DNA from: a virus
Taxonomy: Duplodnaviria; Heunggongvirae; Uroviricota; Caudoviricetes
Reading direction: 5' to 3' (one strand)
DNA length: 42,424 bases
Virus record (IMG/VR): IMGVR_UViG_2563366953_000006
Span: 1 to 42,424 of that record
Positions 1,880 to 41,655 of the stretch are shown here, in pieces. Position 1 is the stretch's first letter, and each line of letters begins with the position of its first letter. A program made the translations under genes and the position numbers. The notes below the pieces were generated by a model. That model did no database searches. It saw only the letters and a program-made list of their open reading frames with translations, and was not told the DNA's origin.

Positions 1880-3313
1880 TCAAGGCAGCCCAGTCTTACC
1901 AGCATCAGCAGAAACAGCTTTGAGGATATAGGGTTCCAGAAGTCTGGCAACGGCTTCAAATACTGGCACCACAACGGAGTTACCGAACTGCCGATATGAC
2001 TGAGTATCTGAAACCGGAATACGGAATGGTTTCCCTCCAGGTTTTTCAAACCCCATAAGGCGTGCGCACTCTCGGGGAGTCAGCCTGCGTGGTCGACGAG
2101 CCTGGTTACTCTCATTCATAAAGTCAGCCTCTCCCGTTGCCATATCCCAACCACGATCAATAAGAATTTCTGATCCGTCTTTGTGATATCTGGCAGAAAG
2201 TGTGCGTGCAATGCTTTCCTTATTCTCAGGATTGACCAACCCAAAGCCAAAACCATTCCCCTTGGCTGCATGCTTTTTGGCGTAGTTATAAAGGTACTCC
2301 CATAGTTTTGGCGTAAGTATATATTTACTGTCGACTACAGGCTCCAGCAATTCACCAAATGATGGGCGGTGTTCCGGATAAAAACGACTGATATCACGCA
2401 AGGTAAACCCCTTGTGAATATTCAGATCTCGTCTAAATCCGACCAGAACAATGCGTTCACGATGCTGAGGCAAAAAATGCTTCCCATCGATAATCTTTGG
2501 ATCGTTTTTTCCCATTTCTGCAGCATCGGCAACTTCGTAGCCCAGCTCGTCAAGGGTCTCCATAATGACTTTGAAAGTTTTACCCTTATCATGGCTCTTC
2601 AGATTTTTGACATTTTCCAGCACAAAAATTGCCGGTTTTTTTGCTCGTATAATACGTGCCACGTCAAAAAAAAGTGTTCCTTGTGCTTCACATTCAAAAC
2701 CATGCGCACGACCAAGTGAGTTTTTCTTACTAACACCAGCAAGGCTAAATGGCTGGCACGGGAACCCCGCAAGAAGCACATCATGATCCGGCACATGCTC
2801 ATCAATATATGCATAAGCATCCGTTTCCAATACATCGGTTTTATCACTCAGCGTGACTTCCCGAATATCGAGATTGAATTTATGCACCTGTTCATCGTTA
2901 AACCAGTTGGCCTTGTATGTACGCACAGCATCTTTATTCCATTCACTGGTAAAAACACACTGGCCTCCAATGGCCTCAAAACCTTTCCGTATCCCTCCAA
3001 TTCCAGCAAATAAGTCAATGAAGCGGAAAGCATATTCCGGATGGTTTGCAGGTGGTTCTGGTAGCATCTTACGCAGAAGAGACTCTTCTACTGAAGTCAA
3101 CGATTTTGGTAAACACTTGCCATTAATCCAGCGGTTAATGGTTTCACGGCTCCACTCATTTTTTCCGACTTTTCTCAGTAATTCAGCCACATACTTCTGA
3201 TCATAGATTTCCAGCACTTTCTCGATAAGCTTTTTATCATTTTCCTGTCGCAGCTTTTCTTCCGCCTCGGCTTCCTTCAGCAGATGCTGTGCCAACACTT
3301 CAAATTCAGACAT
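1880..3313 (-). CDS. ecoRIIM: DNA cytosine-5 methyltransferase, Dcm / M.EcoRII family
   Basis: Contains [17 protein letters not shown] (motif I), [11 protein letters not shown] (PC catalytic motif), ENVKNL and [10 protein letters not shown]; collinear with Dcm/M.EcoRII. Start placed at MSEFEV (3313), preceded by GGAGG; the ORF track extends to 3355. Confidence 0.88.
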
Positions 3314-3619
3314 AATTCCTCCAAGGGGTCTAATGGGTGAAACTCTATCACTCATTCAACCCAGAAGGAAATGTTTTATCTGGATATTTAAACAGTGACT
3401 ACAACGTAATCTAGCACTGGTGATGCTTTGTTAGGCATAGAGAATCATTCTATATACGACTAATGACAGAAAAACAGCAGACAAGTAGTTTGTTCATAAA
3501 TTAACGCATACTACGTGCCTACGGTTTTCGAGACCGGTCCAATCATCAAACGAAACATAAAATTAGCTCACATTATGAGGAAAGGTATCTTTTTGCGCTA
3601 TGTAAATTCAAAGGGTTAG

Positions 3620-4489
<870 letters not shown>

Positions 4490-4546
4490 GTCTTTAAGTG
4501 ATAAGCATAAACCGCAGCACGATCTTGCATACGACGTGCTACGGTT

Positions 4547-5101
4547 TCATTTATCTCCGACCGGAAACTTCTTATACAGTGTCGATATACCAACATCATA
4601 GATGATCGCCACCTTCTGGCGAGGAACGCCTGATGCAATTAATCGCCCGGCCTGCGCCCATTGTTCTGGTGTAAGTTTGGGACGACGTCCACCAATTCGT
4701 CCCTGTGCGCGAGCAGCTTCCAGTCCAGCTTTTGTTCGTTCAACAATCAGTTCTCGTTCCATTTCAGCCAGGGCACCCATCACATGAAAGAAAAAACGCC
4801 CCATCGGTGTGCTGGTATCAATAGCATCCGTCAGGCTGCGCAAATTAACGCCACGTTCGCGCAACTCCTCAACCAGAATGACCAGATGCCGCATGCTACG
4901 CCCTAGCCGATCCAGCTTCCAGACAACCAGAGTGTCACCTGCCGATAATGTCCTGAGCAGTTTTTTCAGTCCCGGCCTTTCGGACTTTGTACCGCTTATC
5001 TTGTCTTCAAAAATCAGCTCGCATCCTGCACAGTTCAGCGCATTACGTTGTAGATCTGTGTTCTGGTCATTTGTTGACACACGTACATAGCCAATAAGCA
5101 T
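4547..5101 (-). CDS. pin: Serine DNA invertase, Gin/Pin/Cin/Hin family
   Basis: MLIGYVRVSTNDQNTDLQ...LVVWKLDRLGRSMRHL...GRIGGRRPKL is a near match to e14 Pin / Mu Gin as recalled; lies next to an invertible tail-fibre segment. Start at MLIGY (5101). Confidence 0.9.
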   Translation of the reverse strand: MLIGYVRVSTNDQNTDLQRNALNCAGCELIFEDKISGTKSERPGLKKLLRTLSAGDTLVVWKLDRLGRSMRHLVILVEELRERGVNLRSLTDAIDTSTPMGRFFFHVMGALAEMERELIVERTKAGLEAARAQGRIGGRRPKLTPEQWAQAGRLIASGVPRQKVAIIYDVGISTLYKKFPVGDK

Positions 5102-5127
5102 GGTAGATCTCCCTGACAAAAGCAGGA

Positions 5128-5541
5128 ATGATGCCATTTGCTCGTTATTTCTGCATTTTCATAAACGTTGGTTTGGGAGAAGCGGCAAAACGGGATGTAG
5201 GAACAGGGGAAAATCAGATACCGGATATGGCTTCTTTTGCCAGTGGTGATGGATGGATGAAATTACCCAACGGTAAAATCCTGCAATATGGTCGAGGTGC
5301 GGTTACGCCGACATTATCGACGCAAACAATGAGAATTACATTCAGCATCCCTTTTCCTAAAAAAGTGGACTGCGCCATGCTTACTCATTCTGGTGATGGT
5401 GGTGCACCTTTAGGTGCTGGACGGGGATTCGTGATGACCGCAGAAGGTCCAACATTAACCGGTTTTAATTCCGCTTACAGAACTGCATCAACCAGTTCCA
5501 CAGTATCGATGAATTACAGTTGGTGGGCTGTTGGTGAGTAA
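5128..5541 (+). CDS. Alternate tail-fibre C-terminal cassette (Sv'-like), silent in this orientation
   Basis: The frame continues through the crossover site (NVGLGEAAKR) so that inversion would fuse it to the constant N-terminus of the tail fibre; it has no independent promoter or RBS context. Confidence 0.6.
   Translation: MMPFARYFCIFINVGLGEAAKRDVGTGENQIPDMASFASGDGWMKLPNGKILQYGRGAVTPTLSTQTMRITFSIPFPKKVDCAMLTHSGDGGAPLGAGRGFVMTAEGPTLTGFNSAYRTASTSSTVSMNYSWWAVGE
5157..5182. repeat. Invertase crossover site (gix/pix-like), left
   Basis: TTTTCATAAACGTTGGTTTGGGAGAA; its reverse complement matches the site at 7078..7103 over TTCTCCCAAACCAA-GTTT. Confidence 0.7.
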
Positions 5542-5552
5542 TTTTATTAAGG

Positions 5553-6005
5553 GTGATTTATATGAACGAATATGTTTATAGCGCAAGGCATAATGCTTTT
5601 TTCCCTGTGGATATGATTGATAAATATAAATCAGAGGGATGGGATTTATCAGATGCTAAAGAGGTGAATCAAAATATTATCAGTGAATTTATGGCTGAAC
5701 CGCCACAAGGAAAAATCCGTATTGCCGGAGGTGATGGGCAGCCCGCGTGGGCAGATATTCCTCCACCCACGCATGAAGAACTTATTGAAATTACTGAATC
5801 AGAAAGACAGCTACTAATTAACCAGGCCAACGAATACATGAACAGTAAGCAATGGCCCGGTAAAGCCGCTATTGGTCGTCTGAAAGGTGAGGAACTGGCG
5901 CAATATAATTTGTGGCTGGATTATCTGGATGCACTGGAGCTGGTTGATACCTCCAGTGCACCAGATATTGAATGGCCTACGCCTCCGGCAGTTCAGGCCA
6001 GATGA
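5553..6005 (+). CDS. Tail-fibre assembly protein (Tfa, U'-like), alternate
   Basis: C-terminus LWLDYLDALELVDTSSAPDIEWP is the Tfa-family signature; sits inside the invertible segment on the opposite strand to its partner. Confidence 0.75.
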   Translation: MIYMNEYVYSARHNAFFPVDMIDKYKSEGWDLSDAKEVNQNIISEFMAEPPQGKIRIAGGDGQPAWADIPPPTHEELIEITESERQLLINQANEYMNSKQWPGKAAIGRLKGEELAQYNLWLDYLDALELVDTSSAPDIEWPTPPAVQAR

Positions 6006-6579
6006 CATCCGGCGCGGTGCTGGTATCTGTTGCCGTCACCGCGTCAATGTAATCCAGCACAGCGTTAAGGCTGGTTGTTTCTGCCTGCGTCAGTTTACGT
6101 CCGGCCTGCAATTTCAGCTGAATCAGACTGATTGAAGCCATTGCAGTATTAATCAGTGACTGGCGCTGTGCTTCTGCTACATCTACTGCGGCGCTATGCT
6201 GTGCTTCGGTATCCGTCACCCATTTCTCACCATCCCATTTATCGTATGGCGTTAACGGGGCGATAGTGGTTGTATTATCAGGGTAATCACCCGGAGCTGT
6301 GATTTCTTTTGATTCTCCTGTTTCGGTGCTATATACCGTTTCACCGCGATGATCTGGCACATATTCCCATGAGTTAAAATCTGCAGAACGGCAAATTGCA
6401 TAACCAGCTTTATATGAGCCAGGAGCATCTAAACAGGAACATGCCGGAATACCGACGCCAACCGCAAGATATTCAGTTGATGTGGAAATATATTCCCGCG
6501 TTTCACCATCATAATTATAAATAGTAATGTCTCCCGCTTTTATGGCAATGAGTTCGTTATTTAATACGGCTTTATTCAT
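5977..6579 (-). CDS. Tail-fibre assembly protein (Tfa, U-like), expressed orientation
   Basis: C-terminus AVLDYIDAVTATDTSTAPDVIWPELP (Tfa family); immediately downstream of the tail-fibre gene. Confidence 0.8.
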   Translation of the reverse strand: MNKAVLNNELIAIKAGDITIYNYDGETREYISTSTEYLAVGVGIPACSCLDAPGSYKAGYAICRSADFNSWEYVPDHRGETVYSTETGESKEITAPGDYPDNTTTIAPLTPYDKWDGEKWVTDTEAQHSAAVDVAEAQRQSLINTAMASISLIQLKLQAGRKLTQAETTSLNAVLDYIDAVTATDTSTAPDVIWPELPEA

Positions 6580-7379
6580 CAGGCAGCCCTCACGATATAA
6601 TTAAAGGCAATGTTACGAGGACGGTTTTCGTTTGCAGTTGGAACAATTCTTGAAGCATCAAGGCCAATCACTTTTGGGTAAACACCGCCCTCGGACCTTT
6701 CTGTCACCATACTTCTGACTAAGGAGAAATAACTATTGTTCGTTGAGGGGTTCAAAGGCACTACTGCCCCCTTAAACGAGCCTACTGATTCCCATATTGA
6801 ATAATTTTCGGTGTTTACAGTCTTGAACTCACCATAGATATTACGTATGGCATCGCCCTGAGCTGATAATATTGCCCTCCCCGTATCCATACCACGTCCG
6901 TCATCCCAGCCACGAATAAACTCACCACGTAAATCAGGCAATTTATTTGTCGGATAAGCCTTTGCCAGTTCCGGGTATTCTTCAGCAGAAAAAGCCGCGC
7001 CGTTGCATTTCAGCCAGCCTGTTGGCGGAGTGGCGGAAGGCCATGGAACAGGGACACCAACGGGTAATGCAGAGCCTTCTCCCAAACCAAGGTTTTCGAG
7101 AGCCGTTTTCACCGTGCCATCCGATTTGATATCGCTAAACGGATTCTTGCGGCTTAACAGCAGCGCACGAAGCGCGGTAAGCAGCTGGTCATGCCGCCCC
7201 TTCTCCAGGCTGGCACCGGATGCCTCCACAACGCTGCAAAGCTCCTCCTGCAACATGTCAAAGTAGTCATCATCCAGATCGGTGGCAGGCGTGCCGGTCT
7301 GGGGGTTACCACGGGTAAAACCGTTCTTACCCGCGCCGAACTTATCCTTCTGCGCGGTTTTCGTGTCTATACGATGCAT
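6579..7379 (-). CDS. Tail fibre protein (constant N-terminal part plus variable collar-type C-terminus, S-like)
   Basis: Lies between the DUF2313 baseplate gene and Tfa; C-terminal region [24 protein letters not shown] resembles the phage tail-collar domain; the crossover site is at codons ~93-100. Confidence 0.8.
7078..7103. repeat. Invertase crossover site (gix/pix-like), right, inside the tail-fibre gene
   Basis: TTCTCCCAAACCAAGGTTTTCGAGAG, inverted relative to 5157..5182; both sites encode the peptide GLGE in their respective reading frames. Confidence 0.7.
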
Positions 7380-7382
7380 GGA

Positions 7383-7967
7383 TTACTCCGGATATTTAAA
7401 AATCACATAGGTATGCGACGGGCAGAGTTTGTTAAGCACACATTCGACAACGGTGTCCCCCCAGAAGCGCAGCGCGGAATCACAGGGATCGCCACATGTC
7501 ATCCAGGTGGTGTTGGTGGCGGCTGGCATGTTGACCTGCCAGTAATACCGCCATTCCGGCGCATTCACCGCGTCAGTACAGGCCGATGAGCAGGTGAACG
7601 TGCTTTTGTCGTATCGCGTGATGGTGGCGTCTGGTCTGCCCAGGGCAGCAAGCTGTGCAAGATAAAAATCCTCATTGATGCCGCCCGCCAGGTTAACCTT
7701 CGCATCCAGCCGTTGCTGACGCTGGCGAAGGGTCTGCGTCCCTGCCGGAATACATTCATCCGGCAGGCCGCACAGACGCTCCCAGCGGTTTATCAGTTCG
7801 GTGGTGGTGCGCGGATCCAGCTCCTGCATCAGGGCATCCGCACGCTGATGAACACGGGTTAATGACGGTGCCGCACCGGCAATCGCCGGATCGCTGGCTG
7901 ACCACGCCGGACCGGGCGGCAACAGTGCTGACAACAGACGGATGTAATCATCGTTTGTCACGTCCAT
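7383..7967 (-). CDS. Baseplate/tail protein, Mu gp48-like (DUF2313, YmfQ-like)
   Basis: Position between the J-like baseplate gene and the tail fibre, and size (~194 aa), as in Mu-like tail modules; family assignment from memory. Confidence 0.6.
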
Positions 7968-9016
7968 GAAATCGCCCCCAGAACCGCCAGTTCATTTTTC
8001 GCAATGGTGATATTGTCCGCCGGTGCAAGCAACTGATGGCTGTATTCCCCGTTCGCACCGGAAATCGCTTCACTGATACGTGACACCTTCAGTTCTCCCT
8101 GCGGATAACCATCACGCAGCAGGAACGAACGCAACTCCGCGGTGATGGCAGCCCGTATTTCCGGTGTGTCCGGCGTCACACGGATATGAAAATCCACCGT
8201 ATGTGCCACCGGCCTGAACACATACAAATCAGAGCCTGCCACCGGGGCCAGTGGCCCGATATGTTGTCTTGCCGCCGTTTCCGTTGATTCTTCCGGAATG
8301 GGATTAATCAGGTCACTGCTGGCAATCATCACACCGACAGTCCCCGTTCCCATCCAGTGTCGGTATGTCCATGCGCGGGTAATGCCAGGCACTTCTTTAG
8401 CCCAGACGACATAGTCCCCGTCAGCCCCGCCCTGCGGCGTCCAGTAATACCGCTCAATGACGCGGGCGCGCCACGTTTCCAGCTCTTCAGTATCAAATCC
8501 GCCTGTCAGGGTGTCAGCCACACCGGAAGACGGCAGACCATTCACCGGCGTGACCAGGATTAATGCCGTACCGTCGTCAGCGTTACCGACCGCACCTGCA
8601 CTTGAGCAGGCGATCGGCACGCGCAGGACACCACCGGAGCTGATTGCATCGTCAGTTGTCGTGTACTGCACCAGGTCATCGCGCTGAATAACACTCCCGG
8701 CAGTCACCTTCAGGCCATCGCTGACACCTTCCCAGCGCATATACCCGCTGGCAACCGTGGCTCCCTTGCGCGGACACCGTTTCATCGCAGCATGTCGCGC
8801 CAGCCAGGACTCATCGCACAGGTCAGGCAGCATATTCATTGCCAGATAATCGATGTAACCGTAGACCGTATGCAGCGCCGCCGCATACACCTTTGCCCGC
8901 ACGTCTTCATCCATGCGCCGGAGCGTGTCGCTGACGTCCAGCCTGGCGAATAAATCGTTACGGAGCATACTGATATTTTCTGCCAGCGTCGGGCGCTGAA
9001 ATTCACTGTCCGCCAT
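7958..9016 (-). CDS. Baseplate J-like protein (Mu gp47-like)
   Basis: Size (352 aa) and position in a conserved Mu-like baseplate gene order. Confidence 0.65.
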
Positions 9017-32200: not shown

Positions 32201-32694
32201 TAAGCCCCCACGTAATTCCCTGACAGATACCACTCATCACCCGATACAGCGCGCTTGCTGCTTTTCCGTAAACACTGCTCACGACGCGCCAGAAAATTGT
32301 TTCGTTCTGGCTGGGAGTGGCTTTCACGGAATGCCGCCATCCACACCGTTGCAGCACGACGGTATAAGCCCCTGGACTCCAGTTCTTCAGCCTGGCGGGT
32401 CAGGCACAAAATCACCCGGGGGTCGTTAGTGCCGACATAGAAATTGCGCACAGCTCTGGTTTCACGAACAGATTGTGGTTCCGGCTCCTGCGCTCTCTCA
32501 GTCAGGCGCGGGAAATGTCTGCGTGTATCTCCTTCACAACGGTGAGCCACACGCCCACTCTGACGTAACTTGCTTGCTGACTGCAGAACGCGCTGCCGTG
32601 AGTAACCAGCAAAAGCATCCGCAATGTCTCCGGAAGTACACCCCGGATGGGCTTCAATGAATTTCTGAACTTCATTCAAAAGACTCATAATCAC
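32200..32694 (-). CDS. Hypothetical protein, possibly PerC-like regulator
   Basis: 164 aa, translationally coupled to both neighbours; weak recalled resemblance to PerC family (ELESRGLYRRAATVW). Confidence 0.35.
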   Translation of the reverse strand: MIMSLLNEVQKFIEAHPGCTSGDIADAFAGYSRQRVLQSASKLRQSGRVAHRCEGDTRRHFPRLTERAQEPEPQSVRETRAVRNFYVGTNDPRVILCLTRQAEELESRGLYRRAATVWMAAFRESHSQPERNNFLARREQCLRKSSKRAVSGDEWYLSGNYVGA

Positions 32695-33632
32695 CCCCTG
32701 AATCCTGCCGGGATCTGGCTGTAGTCCACGTTGTCGTAACTGGCTTTGAAGTACGGGTCTTCGCGTTTTTCTGTGTGCGTGCTGACGGACGGCGATAAGC
32801 GCAGGGAAAGCTCATCCCATTTTTCCCGCAACTTCGACGGGCTGAGCACGTTACGGCACCAGAACGGATCGCGGCTGACGCGGCTGTACATCTCGCAGAT
32901 TTGTTTGTGAGTACGACCATCCTGCACACACATCAGGCGAATTTCGTTTGCCCAGGCTGTCCAGTTAGGTTCTTTGGGACGAACCACCTCGCCGTCACAT
33001 TCGGCGGCCTGCTCGTACAGGGCGATGATTTTTTTCCAGAGCCACTGTGCGCAGGTCAAATCATCCTGCGTTCCCCACTGGCGCTTTTTAGGGCTGAATA
33101 CAACCGCATCAGGATGGCGAGTTAAAAAATCCTGTTCATCCGTCTGCGTGTCCGGTTGCGAAGCGTCCGGACGAGAAGTTTTTTTATCTGATGGATCATG
33201 TTTTGATTTTACTGACGGATCCCCGCCAGATTCTGACGGGTGAAAACCCGCTTTTTTGCCAGATTTCGACGCATCAAATTTTGACGGGTCAGATTTTGAT
33301 GCGTCAGATTTTGACGGGTCAGAATCTGACAGTTGAGAAAATGCCGCTGCCTGAAGCTTCGCAACGTTAAGCTGATAAACATTCGACGCATTGCGGTTAC
33401 CCTGGCGACGCGCCTTACGCGTTAACCAGCCTTCTGCTTCCAGCCGTGCGATAGCCGTTCTGACGGTACTCATCCCCGCGCCAATCTGGCGTGCAATGGT
33501 TTCAATTGATGGCCAGCACACACCTTCGTCATTACTGAAATCAGCCAGGCGGGCCATAATTGCCACGCTGGATAACTTCATGCCTGACGCAGCGCAACCA
33601 TCCCATACATAGCCGGTTAATTTAGTGCTCAT
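32691..33632 (-). CDS. Replication initiator (O-like), N-terminal HTH with internal low-complexity repeat encoded by iterons
   Basis: N-terminal HTH-like region WPSIETIARQIGAGMSTVRTAIARLEAEGWLTR; central SDSDPSKSDASKSDPSKFDASKS repeat coincides with DNA direct repeats. Confidence 0.65.
   Translation of the reverse strand: MSTKLTGYVWDGCAASGMKLSSVAIMARLADFSNDEGVCWPSIETIARQIGAGMSTVRTAIARLEAEGWLTRKARRQGNRNASNVYQLNVAKLQAAAFSQLSDSDPSKSDASKSDPSKFDASKSGKKAGFHPSESGGDPSVKSKHDPSDKKTSRPDASQPDTQTDEQDFLTRHPDAVVFSPKKRQWGTQDDLTCAQWLWKKIIALYEQAAECDGEVVRPKEPNWTAWANEIRLMCVQDGRTHKQICEMYSRVSRDPFWCRNVLSPSKLREKWDELSLRLSPSVSTHTEKREDPYFKASYDNVDYSQIPAGFRG
33200..33335. repeat. Iteron-like direct repeats (candidate replication origin) inside the initiator gene
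   Basis: Repeated units of the form GATTTTGACGGGTCAGA / GATTTTGATGCGTCAGA, at least 4-6 copies. Confidence 0.6.
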
Positions 33633-39293: not shown

Positions 39294-39500
39294 ATGCTGA
39301 ACCTCGATTGTGTTCCAATCTCAACTTATTGCAAAGAAACTGGCGAAACTCCTGAAGCAATAAACAAACGTGTACAGCGCGGTGTTTGGCGTGAAGGTGT
39401 TCAGGTTTTAAAGGTTGAAGGCGTTAAGGAGAGGTGGATTGATCTTAGTGAGGTTGCAAAATGGGCCAGACAAAACTGCTCAAACTACCGCGCGGCGTAA
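39294..39500 (+). CDS. Excisionase-like protein (Xis)
   Basis: 68-aa protein immediately upstream of and overlapping the integrase; the EAINKRVQRGVWREGVQ segment resembles lambda Xis ETVRRWVRE; GGAG RBS. Confidence 0.5.
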   Translation: MLNLDCVPISTYCKETGETPEAINKRVQRGVWREGVQVLKVEGVKERWIDLSEVAKWARQNCSNYRAA

Positions 39501-40633
39501 CAATCAGGAAACACCGCCTGGGCGAAACGATCAATATAACTTTCACCTATAAAGGAGTTAAATGTCGTGAGCCTCTTTCCAATCTGGAAGTAATACCAAA
39601 GAACATAAAATACGCCGAGCGCACACTCGGCGAAATTCATAATAAGATCGAAAGGGGAACATTCATTTATGCGGAATATTTTCCCCGTTCTGCTCGTTTG
39701 AAAATTTTTGGTAATGCTGCTGCAGGCAAAACGGTAAAAATGTACCTGGACGAATACCTTGAAATCTGCGAAACGAGAAAACTTTCACCCTCTACGATTG
39801 GTGGTTATAAAAAATGCCGTAGTGCGTTAGCCTCACTCCACATTTGCCCTGCAAGTGAATTAACACCAGCAATCCTGAAAGCGTGGATTCAAAGCCAGAA
39901 AACGACCTTAAAAACAATTCGCAACCAGTTATCTTTCCTGCGGTCAGCACTTGATGAAGCCGTAACCGATGGGGTACTTCAAATTAACCCCGTATCGTTG
40001 GTAACTGCTTCGCGCTACCAAAGTGATAAGTCAGAAGCAGAAAGCAGCTACGTGGTTGATCCGCTATCACCAGCAGAAGTTGATGCATTACTAGCAGCAG
40101 CCGGAAACAAACAATGGGAAAATCTGTTCCGGTTCGCTATACATACAGGCCTGCGTAGTTCTGAATTATGTGCCCTTCGATGGCGTGATATCGACTTTGT
40201 TGGAAAAACTGCCCATGTCCAGAGCGCAAGTGTTGTCGGTGTTATCAAAGGGACAAAGACAAAAGCAGGTACTCGGAAAGTTGAACTGACAGAAGAGGCA
40301 ATGTTGGCGCTGATAAATCAGAAGCCATTTACATTCATGAAGGATGCTACTGTCTTTGAAGATCCAAAGACCAATAAGCCTTGGGCAAGTGCTGATGCAA
40401 TTAGGAAAAAAGCATGGGTGCCAACATTGCGAAAAGCAGGTATTCGTTACAGAAACCCATATCAAACCAGGCATACATTCGCCACCAGCCATATCAGCCG
40501 AGGAGCAAACCTGTTTTGGCTTGCAGCTCAAATGGGGCATAAAGGGCCGGAGATGCTTTTCAGGCACTATGGTTCGTATCTTAAAGAGTATGATAACTTT
40601 ACATCGATAAATCATTTGCATAATCATAATTAA
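39461..40633 (+). CDS. Tyrosine site-specific integrase (phage integrase family)
   Basis: 390 aa; C-terminal catalytic residues in TGLRSSELCALRW..., YQTRHTFAT and MGHKGPEMLFRHYGSYL (R...H..R...Y); adjacent to the right repeat. Confidence 0.9.
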   Translation: MGQTKLLKLPRGVTIRKHRLGETINITFTYKGVKCREPLSNLEVIPKNIKYAERTLGEIHNKIERGTFIYAEYFPRSARLKIFGNAAAGKTVKMYLDEYLEICETRKLSPSTIGGYKKCRSALASLHICPASELTPAILKAWIQSQKTTLKTIRNQLSFLRSALDEAVTDGVLQINPVSLVTASRYQSDKSEAESSYVVDPLSPAEVDALLAAAGNKQWENLFRFAIHTGLRSSELCALRWRDIDFVGKTAHVQSASVVGVIKGTKTKAGTRKVELTEEAMLALINQKPFTFMKDATVFEDPKTNKPWASADAIRKKAWVPTLRKAGIRYRNPYQTRHTFATSHISRGANLFWLAAQMGHKGPEMLFRHYGSYLKEYDNFTSINHLHNHN

Positions 40634-41454: not shown

Positions 41455-41488
41455 ATATATAATTAAAACAACAGGTTAATATTTTTCA

Positions 41489-41655
41489 GACACGGGTTCA
41501 ACTCCCGCCAGCTCCACCAATCATGATTGAACGGTGCAAGGACAACACCAACAAAAACAGGAAGTTAGAAGTCTCAGCAAGACACCGACCAGACGGTGAG
41601 GAGACAAAAAAGGATACGCAAAGGAGCCGCGGCTCCTGGTGACATGAAAGCCCAC
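41489..41655. repeat. Right copy of imperfect direct repeat (attR-like), carrying a partial duplicate of the ssrA 3' end
   Basis: Direct repeat of 372..539 with about 10 mismatches; lies just downstream of the integrase and the AT-rich cargo gene. Confidence 0.8.

Follow-up and report, generated by a model that had tools for sequence, protein, structure and literature searches.

Inversion of a DNA segment is known to switch host range in the G segment of phage Mu and the C segment of phage P1, and the P segment of the e14 element of Escherichia coli K-12, together with its invertase PinE, has been known since 1985. The e14 system was described in 1985 by Plasterk and van de Putte and in 2004 by Mehta et al. 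(both cited through PMC4272514). In K-12 cultures both orientations of the segment coexist, as found by sequencing and by PCR (PMC4272514), and the crossover repeat reported for the P segment, which is inverted by PinE and by PinQ, is TTGGTTTGGGAGAAGG / CCTTCTCCCAAACCAA (PMC12529663).

The locus described here lies in a 42,424-nucleotide stretch of viral DNA which, taken as a whole, is referred to below as the window. The switch is of an already known and ordinary kind, the e14 P segment flipped by Pin, and in this copy it is very probably a Pin-catalysed tail-fibre inversion switch, presumably assisted by Fis and an enhancer, in an E. coli prophage, a complete SfV/e14-like myovirus. The prophage is integrated at ssrA; terminase, portal, capsid, sheath, tape measure, baseplate, integrase and repressor were all found, and the structural genes are 97-98% identical to those of the Shigella phages SfII, SfI and SfV. 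ON470584, the “phage” record closest in its structural genes, was rejected as evidence for the module in virions because it is a partial prophage prediction that includes chromosomal genes; its truncated fibre adjoins the invertase and mcrA. The features of the locus are listed below with their strands.

4547..5101 (-): pin, serine DNA invertase, 184 aa (Resolvase and HTH_7 domains, identity to PinE)
5012..5083 (-): presumed Fis-dependent recombinational enhancer, pin nt 19-90 (placed by homology)
5128..5168 (+): short leader MMPFARYFCIFINV, which begins outside the segment and runs in frame into whichever cassette is silent
5156-5181: pin-proximal crossover site L, TTTTCATAAACG TT GGTTTGGGAGAA, central dinucleotide at 5168-5169
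5169..7089: invertible segment, 1921 bp between crossover dinucleotides (from in-silico inversion and natural inversions)
5169..5541 (+): silent alternative fibre C-terminus, Gp53-like_C (Pfam PF21882, 2.4e-13)
5562..6005 (+): silent TfaP-type tail-fibre assembly chaperone, 147 aa (Pfam Caudo_TAP, 3e-31)
5977..6579 (-): expressed TfaE-type tail-fibre assembly chaperone, 200 aa (Pfam Caudo_TAP, 1.2e-32)
6579..7088 (-): expressed variable fibre C-terminus, residues 98-266 (Pfam Collar, 1.8e-15)
7077-7102: fibre-proximal crossover site R, TTCTCCCAAACC AA GGTTTTCGAGAG, central dinucleotide at 7089-7090, within codon Leu97
7091..7379 (-): constant N-terminal part of the fibre, residues 1-96 (outside the segment; StfP identity)

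Crossover sites, cassettes and inversion

The crossover sites are 26-bp sequences, written here as 12 + 2 + 12, which stand in inverted orientation and contain an inverted repeat with arms of 20 nt each (5163-5182 and 7076-7095) at 95% complementarity. The pattern TTCTCCCAAACCAA[G/C]GTTT occurs in exactly two copies in the whole window, on opposite strands, and in none of 100 shuffles. The degenerate invertase-site consensus likewise matches only these two sites in the window, against 0.01 matches expected, while TTNTCNNAAACCNNGGTTTNNGANAA matches each of them with one mismatch and has no third match within the window. Extra sites like those of the Min/p15B multi-inversion systems were sought throughout the window, using both the site core and the degenerate consensus and allowing up to 3 mismatches, and none was found; a system of that type was dropped from consideration because the search returned only the two crossover sites. 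The limits 5157-7103 in a preliminary description of the locus are offset by 1 nt from the site limits given here, which is immaterial.

Both sites are base for base those of the K-12 e14 P segment (26/26 each), the pin-proximal site corresponding to the K-12 site on the pinE side and the fibre-proximal site to that on the stfP side. Compared with gix of the Mu record and cix of the P1 record, they align and show the same half-site pattern; the preliminary description had named such an alignment as a check on its inverted 26-bp sites that encode GLGE. The coding claim holds as well: GLGE is in frame at both sites, within ...ENLGLGEGS of the 266-aa fibre and within ...INVGLGEAAK of ORF 5128-5541.

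The crossover dinucleotide lies inside codon Leu97, so the constant part of the fibre amounts to 96 aa plus one base. This part is 96% identical to residues 1-105 of K-12 StfP and has a dN/dS of 0.03-0.07, and the fibre gene follows the gp48/YmfQ baseplate gene (7383-7967; Pfam match Phage_Mu_Gp48) in the late operon. The variable parts are about 169 aa in the expressed state and, in the silent cassette, 119 aa after GLGE. A Caudo_TAP protein follows each C-terminus, in agreement with the earlier proposal of an alternative 119-aa C-terminus with its own Tfa. The two tfa genes are convergent and overlap by 29 nt, and the start of the TfaE-type gene overlaps the fibre stop (ATGA). The expressed chaperone is 91% identical to K-12 TfaE; the silent one is 54% identical to K-12 TfaP, chiefly in its C-terminal half. 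With a dN/dS of about 0.06 for the Gp53-like_C cassette and 0.06-0.15 for its chaperone, the substitution pattern indicates that the silent cassette is under strong purifying selection.

The PDB relatives of the expressed fibre C-terminus are the tips of short and long tail fibres. The stretch of this tip at 6630-6880 has no match in the closest full-length relatives (loci L001-L007), but it is not new, since 154 E. coli genomes have it at 95-100% identity.

When the segment is inverted in silico at the central dinucleotide, the fibre frame is kept, as the preliminary description had predicted for both orientations: the 266-aa Collar fibre with its TfaE-like chaperone gives way to a 220-aa Gp53-like_C fibre with the second chaperone, and a fused 220-aa CDS is in fact annotated in strains with the flipped orientation. 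Both assembly and annotation of such regions vary with the orientation that was sequenced, and the fused fibre CDS may be given as one of 266 aa, as one of 220 aa or as a pseudogene. The same module is annotated (pinE, tfaE, gp53-like) in thousands of E. coli genomes, and public assemblies contain it in both orientations. Homologous segments in E. coli genomes, again in both orientations, measure 1863-1881 bp between the arms. An observation of one orientation only would have contradicted an active switch; instead, among complete E. coli genomes the window's orientation is found in 62 and the flipped one in 60, and there are near-isogenic pairs that differ by the inversion. CH423 and CH458 have the same sequence on either side of the segment, and within it one is the exact reverse complement of the other (0 mismatches); O157 FRIK944 and strain 7784 likewise show an exact segment inversion with 0 mismatches and identical flanks; in both pairs the breakpoints fall in the repeat. 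Where relatives have inverted naturally, the break at the pin-proximal site lies inside TTGGTTTGGGAGAAG. The evidence for both orientations thus comes from relatives that have the same sites, and since the sites are identical and the enzyme near-identical, the segment probably inverts in this particular strain too.

The invertase gene and its presumed enhancer

The product of pin has the composition of the invertase subfamily: it is a 184-aa serine recombinase with an N-terminal catalytic domain (Pfam Resolvase, 1e-51) that includes the active-site serine, Ser9 in the motif MLIGYVRVS, and a C-terminal helix-turn-helix (HTH_7, 4.9e-13). It is 94.6% identical to K-12 PinE (10 of 184 residues differ), 81.7% to P1 Cin and 77.3% to Mu Gin, so the Pin/Gin-type invertase that was first proposed to adjoin the segment is indeed there. 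The gene has a Shine-Dalgarno sequence, AGGGAG, about 7 nt upstream of its start, and its dN/dS against relatives is 0.07-0.10. A simple consensus scan of 4400-7600 gave no sigma-70-like promoter for pin; in the same interval, promoter and terminator counts were not above those of shuffles, with nothing convincing 5' of pin or of the leader ORF.

The presumed enhancer is placed by homology: the P1 enhancer, annotated at cin nt 19-90, lines up with pin nt 19-90 with no gap. This stretch of pin shares 70/72 positions with K-12 pinE, 55/72 with P1 and 54/72 with Mu gin. Two candidate 15-bp Fis cores of the form G-N13-C, at 5066-5080 (GTGTCAACAAATGAC) and 5017-5031 (GTGCAGGATGCGAGC), occupy conserved positions (pin nt 22-36 and 71-85) and lie 49 nt apart from start to start; the spacing of Fis sites in such enhancers is 48 bp. 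By homology, inversion here would depend on Fis and the enhancer.

Proposed action of the switch and alternative readings

In the e14-type switch as it is understood here, Pin dimers would bind both 26-bp sites, the bound sites would synapse with the enhancer in the first 90 nt of pin, and Pin would make its cuts at the central TT/AA, within codon 97 of the fibre gene, where the strands would be exchanged. The constant 96-aa baseplate-attachment part would be read from the late tail operon in either state, leading at present into the Collar-domain C-terminus and the TfaE-type chaperone, and after a flip into the Gp53-like C-terminus and the TfaP-type chaperone. Virions released by a population of lysogens would then carry one or the other of two receptor-binding tips. 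These tips differ in domain type, the domains being unrelated, and purifying selection acts on both; by analogy they may bind different receptors, with a consequent change of host range. To our knowledge, host-range switching of this kind has been demonstrated for Mu G and P1 C only and never in the e14 family, because the K-12 e14 is defective. The present copy, in a complete prophage, could be used for a test of host-range change by an e14-type switch that is beyond the reach of the K-12 element.

One alternative reading denies the inverted repeat any function in recombination and takes it for a coincidence, or for the result of conserved GLGE coding in paralogous fibre genes. Both arms are coding and specify the same peptide, as this reading would predict, but no match would be expected by chance, the repeat is part of a longer dyad of 26 bp whose two flanks, the non-coding pin side included, show the invertase half-site pattern, and natural inversions break exactly at the repeat, which refutes the proposal and leaves it a vanishingly small probability. 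It is also very unlikely, if less extremely so, that the locus is a frozen relic, in which the architecture has been inherited and flipping has ceased with pin unexpressed or inactive or the enhancer degraded. The consensus scan that gave no pin promoter and the 10 residues by which Pin departs from PinE are compatible with such a relic. However, the sites are the same as those that invert in K-12, pin is intact and under purifying selection at the dN/dS given above, the enhancer region retains its near-identity to that of pinE, and the silent cassette and chaperone are intact, with a dN/dS of about 0.06. In addition, the isogenic pairs with 0 mismatches show that flipping is very recent among relatives of about 92-94% identity, and other Pin-type invertases can act in trans, as PinQ does on e14 (PMC12529663).

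A more substantial alternative, though still an unlikely one, is that the switch serves mainly to defend the lysogen against other phages, through a truncated fibre fragment, the counterpart of K-12 StfE2, that would mask outer-membrane receptors and block adsorption of T2-like phages; a flip would exchange the C-terminal fragment to which the leader beside pin is joined. In the present orientation the leader and the silent cassette together form ORF 5128-5541. Kirigo et al. (2025) report that inversion in e14 creates a chimeric StfE2, composed of the stfE leader and the StfP C-terminus, which blocks T2 adsorption (PMC12529663). The window has kept the leader (MMPFARYFCIFINV; the K-12 counterpart, the start of stfE, is MPFACYFFIFINV), which is now joined to a cassette of the Gp53-like_C type, the domain type of the StfP C-terminus, and in RefSeq an ORF matching 5128-5541 is annotated as a CDS in relatives. 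Against this, the prophage is complete, so that a role in the virion fibre is the simplest reading; the ATG of the leader is badly placed for translation, with AGGA directly abutting it, and no promoter for the leader ORF was predicted in the scan of 4400-7600. The leader also overlaps the crossover site and the region upstream of pin, so its conservation need not mean that it is coding, and in a P2-like carrier of the module it is out of frame with the cassette. The Gp53-type protein of the window is 57% identical to K-12 StfP overall, with 96% over the first 100 aa, while the Gp53-like part is distant. Defence could, moreover, supplement a host-range switch instead of replacing it. It is conceivable, but improbable, that the two outputs are coupled, a flip both swapping the tip and joining the unused cassette to the leader (5128-5168) for expression in the lysogen as a receptor-masking fragment; by such masking, which is claimed for the StfE2 of the defective e14, protection against superinfection would in an intact prophage change along with host range.

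Comparison with known systems

The G segment of Mu has the same architecture as the segment described here, with the constant part of the fibre outside and two convergent cassettes of tip and chaperone inside. In both, the invertase gene lies downstream of the segment and shares its strand with the fibre operon, and the gix half-sites TTCCTGTAAACC and TTATCCAAAACC show the same pattern as the window sites. The Mu segment is longer (about 3 kb against 1.9 kb), its central dinucleotide is TC/GA instead of TT/AA, its constant part, 170 aa in an S protein of 504 aa, exceeds the 96 aa of the window, and its fibre tips have a domain content unrelated to that of the window tips. The C segment of P1 shares the central dinucleotide TT/AA, and its inner half-site TTCTCTTAAACC may be compared with TTCTCCCAAACC of the window. 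The P1 segment, of 4.2 kb, has cin on its other side relative to Sc, and in the S protein of 987 aa the constant part takes up about 454 aa, again against 96 aa.

The same module of invertase and segment is carried by the P2-like Peduovirus magyaro (KC618326) and pro483, at about 88% nucleotide identity over pin and the whole segment. In these carriers the homology to the window stops at the fibre-side crossover site, and the constant part, about 349 aa long, is instead an N-terminus of the P2 H type (Pfam Phage_tail_fib). Their outer half-sites (TTCTCGCATACC) differ from those of the window, and the leader on the pin side is out of frame with the cassette. The early remark that a constant part of about 96 aa is unusually short stands when the comparison is with Mu, P1 or the P2-like carrier, but does not stand within the e14 family, where this is the standard StfP N-terminus.

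The nearest relative is the P segment of K-12 e14, and the preliminary assignment to the e14 type agrees with the identical sites, the PinE-like enzyme and the gene order. Differences from the K-12 reference are nevertheless evident. The segment of the window is flipped relative to it, so that expression falls to the Collar/TfaE cassette; no nucleotide similarity to K-12 stfP and tfaP is detectable in the Gp53-like cassette or in the N-terminal half of its chaperone; and the tip of the Collar cassette differs at 6630-6880. The K-12 element is defective and lies in icd, whereas the prophage of the window is complete and lies at ssrA, and the cargo beside pin consists in the window of a GIY-YIG gene and an EcoRII-type restriction-modification system and in K-12 of mcrA. 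Common to both are the gene order ymfQ, stf, tfa, tfa', stf', pin, the domain pair Gp53-like_C and Collar, the 29-nt overlap of the convergent tfa genes, and the short (about 96-aa) StfP N-terminus downstream of ymfQ, with in-frame fusion at LGLGE. With sites that match at 26/26 positions, a PinE-type enzyme, the StfP N-terminus and two cassettes each with a Tfa, the locus belongs with the e14 P segment.

Crossover sites and the two cassettes

The segment (5169-7089, 1921 bp) presents one fibre tip and one chaperone for expression and holds an alternative pair silent, with its genes arranged as follows, listed from left to right along the plus strand.

Genes in and beside the invertible segment
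4547-5101, minus strand: serine recombinase gene (pin), 184 aa, Resolvase and HTH_7 domains
5128/5167-5541, plus strand: ORF with a Gp53-like_C fibre tip as its body (domain match)
5562-6005, plus strand: chaperone gene, Caudo_TAP (domain match)
5977-6579, minus strand: chaperone gene, Caudo_TAP, 200 aa (domain match)
6579-7379, minus strand: fibre gene, 266 aa, Collar domain (domain match)
Beyond the fibre gene: baseplate genes Mu gp48/YmfQ, gp47, gp46, gp45

The convergent chaperone genes share 29 nt at their 3' ends (5977-6005), precisely the overlap seen between tfaP and tfaE of K-12, and their C-terminal ~45 residues are related (...LDY[IL]DA...DTS.APD[IV].WP); both strands are thus under constraint in the middle of the segment. 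Directly adjoining pin is a gene for a 274-aa LEM-3-like GIY-YIG domain protein (3665-4489), which is kept beside pin in all close relatives retrieved (L002-L007).

The preliminary description had claimed a pair of inverted sites, both encoding GLGE in frame, and both observations are confirmed. The top inverted repeat within 4000-9000 has 20-nt arms (5163-5182 and 7076-7095) that are 95% complementary, and the sites can be written as 12 + 2 + 12, namely TTTTCATAAACG-TT-GGTTTGGGAGAA on the pin side (5156-5181) and TTCTCCCAAACC-AA-GGTTTTCGAGAG on the fibre side (7077-7102). The confirmation follows from the two occurrences of the site core in the 42-kb window, as against none in 100 shuffles, and from a search of the window with a degenerate invertase-site consensus, which matches only these two sites. 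The sites also align with known crossover sites: they have the half-site pattern of gix in the Mu record and cix in the P1 record, share the TT/AA centre of cix, and are both identical to those of K-12 e14 at 26/26 positions.

The enhancer that had been expected in the 5' part of the invertase gene is placed by homology at 5012-5083, where it would act as a recombinational enhancer. The Cin enhancer is annotated in the P1 record at nt 19-90 of cin, and in this region the four invertase genes (window, P1, Mu and pinE) align gap-free, the window matching P1 at 55/72 positions, Mu at 54/72 and pinE at 70/72. Two G-N13-C 15-mers, whose positions (nt 22-36 and 71-85) are conserved, are candidate Fis cores, and the TAATG motif described between the Fis sites for hin (PMC3798978) is present between these putative sites in the window.

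In the fibre-side site, the central dinucleotide falls within codon Leu97 of the fibre gene. When 5169-7089 is reverse-complemented in silico, residues 1-101 (...ENLGLGE) are kept and the frame runs into the Gp53-like cassette, so that the 266-aa fibre is replaced by a 220-aa protein, followed after 20 nt by the second chaperone gene with the Shine-Dalgarno sequence AGGGTGA ahead of it. Each orientation therefore constitutes a complete fibre-plus-chaperone operon, in agreement with the proposed swap of fibre C-terminus and chaperone.

Orientation and selection among relatives

The stretch 4400-7500, as found and with the segment flipped, was compared with 5,426 complete E. coli genomes. As the segment accounts for 62% of the query, a single-strand match with a coverage of at least 80% requires the same orientation. 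Among relatives ~92-94% identical to the window, the window's orientation occurs in 62 genomes and the flipped one in 60. The hospital isolates CH423 and CH458 (chromosomes of 4,740,904 and 4,740,891 bp) carry the locus at the same position; another pair of this kind consists of O157:H7 FRIK944 and strain 7784. When loci of 7,089 and 7,075 bp spanning the match were compared, the members of each pair did not differ outside the segment, and within it one was the exact reverse complement of the other, without a mismatch across 1881 and 1863 bp; the breakpoints fall within TTGGTTTGGGAGAAG / CTTCTCCCAAACCAA. The observation of a single orientation only, which would have spoken against the preliminary description, was thus not made.

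A cassette that is never expressed is expected to drift toward a dN/dS of 1. In comparisons with two relatives, the silent fibre tip has a dN/dS of 0.06 and its chaperone one of 0.06-0.15, similar to pin (0.07-0.10) and the constant fibre part (0.03-0.07); the low values of the silent cassette support regular use of both orientations.

Prophage setting and alternative readings

The window is E. coli chromosome with a prophage integrated at the tmRNA gene ssrA (40-402). Direct repeats of 152 nt, 95% identical (367-518 and 41484-41635), mark the attachment sites and enclose a complete prophage that has an integrase (39461-40633), CI-like repressor, terminase, portal, capsid, sheath, tape measure and baseplate; its structural genes are 97-98% identical to those of Shigella phages SfII, SfI and SfV. 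The e14 element of K-12 is integrated in icd instead. Unlike K-12 e14, the present element looks able to make virions, which makes a virion-level role for the switch plausible.

Inside the repeats, at the pin end, are an EcoRII-type restriction endonuclease with EcoRII-N and EcoRII-C domains (631-1845) and a 491-aa C5 cytosine methyltransferase (1880-3355). The corresponding position holds mcrA in K-12 e14 and nothing or a lipase gene in other relatives, and has the appearance of a hot-spot for cargo with restriction functions. Elsewhere, overlapping CAGATTTTGACGGGT-like direct repeats of 15-bp period (33260-33334, within ORF 32691-33632) resemble lambdoid origin iterons inside a replication-initiator gene. 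ON470584.1 (vB_EcoM-689R6; loci L011 and L012) was rejected as a phage record, being a partial prophage prediction with the chromosomal genes mnmA, hflD and nudJ; its truncated fibre gene adjoins an invertase and mcrA, and the assembly was probably interrupted or wrongly joined where the invertible segment lies.

According to a 2025 proposal, it is the host that e14 inversion serves: the product, StfE2, combines a leader with a fibre tip and prevents T2 from adsorbing (PMC12529663). The window has an equivalent leader ORF (5128-5168), now joined to the Gp53-like tip. Such a defence is nevertheless an unlikely account of this segment, to be considered as a minor, possibly additional role, since the ribosome-binding spacing at the leader is poor, no promoter is predicted for the leader ORF, the P2-like carrier KC618326 has a disrupted leader frame, and the prophage is intact. 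That the segment is a frozen relic is more improbable still, given both orientations and exact inversions in relatives, the e14-identical sites, a Pin 94.6% identical to PinE of K-12 e14, the conserved enhancer region and the low dN/dS of the silent cassette. A chance repeat has a negligible probability, in view of the shuffles, the consensus search and natural breakpoints inside the repeat. The interpretation of the segment as an invertible fibre switch is supported, and inversion may switch host range.

Relation to known invertible segments

The constant fibre part had been called unusually short. At 96 aa it is indeed short in comparison with Mu S (170 of 504 aa), P1 S (about 454 of 987 aa) and KC618326 (Peduovirus magyaro), but it is exactly the N-terminus of e14 StfP (96% identity), and is therefore a trait of the lineage rather than an anomaly of the window. 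KC618326 carries the same invertase-plus-segment module at ~88% identity; homology ends at the fibre-side site, beyond which a P2 H-type N-terminus of ~349 aa serves as its constant part. In this phage (locus L010, ~3440-3490 and 5317-5342), the outer half-site TTCTCGCATACC of the pin-side site matches the fibre-side site, and the e14-type outer half-site TTTTCATAAACG persists as a relic 4 nt away, which suggests that recombination at or close to the crossover sites has carried the module from one phage lineage to another.

The feature is a member of an already known system, the e14 P segment/Pin family, located in an intact prophage. In K-12 e14 the genes run ymfQ, stfP, tfaP, tfaE, stfE', pinE, with the same domain pair, Gp53-like_C in StfP and Collar in the StfE fragment; the 200-aa chaperone is 91% identical to TfaE, and the published P-segment repeats TTGGTTTGGGAGAAGG and CCTTCTCCCAAACCAA share their core with those of the window (PMC12529663). 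The window's segment is inverted relative to the K-12 reference, so that its Collar/TfaE cassette is the expressed one. The window's Gp53-like cassette represents an allele other than that of K-12, without nucleotide match over 5183-5850, and its Collar tip (6630-6880) is another allele, found also in 154 other E. coli genomes. In K-12 cultures, both orientations are present together (PMC4272514; PMC12529663).
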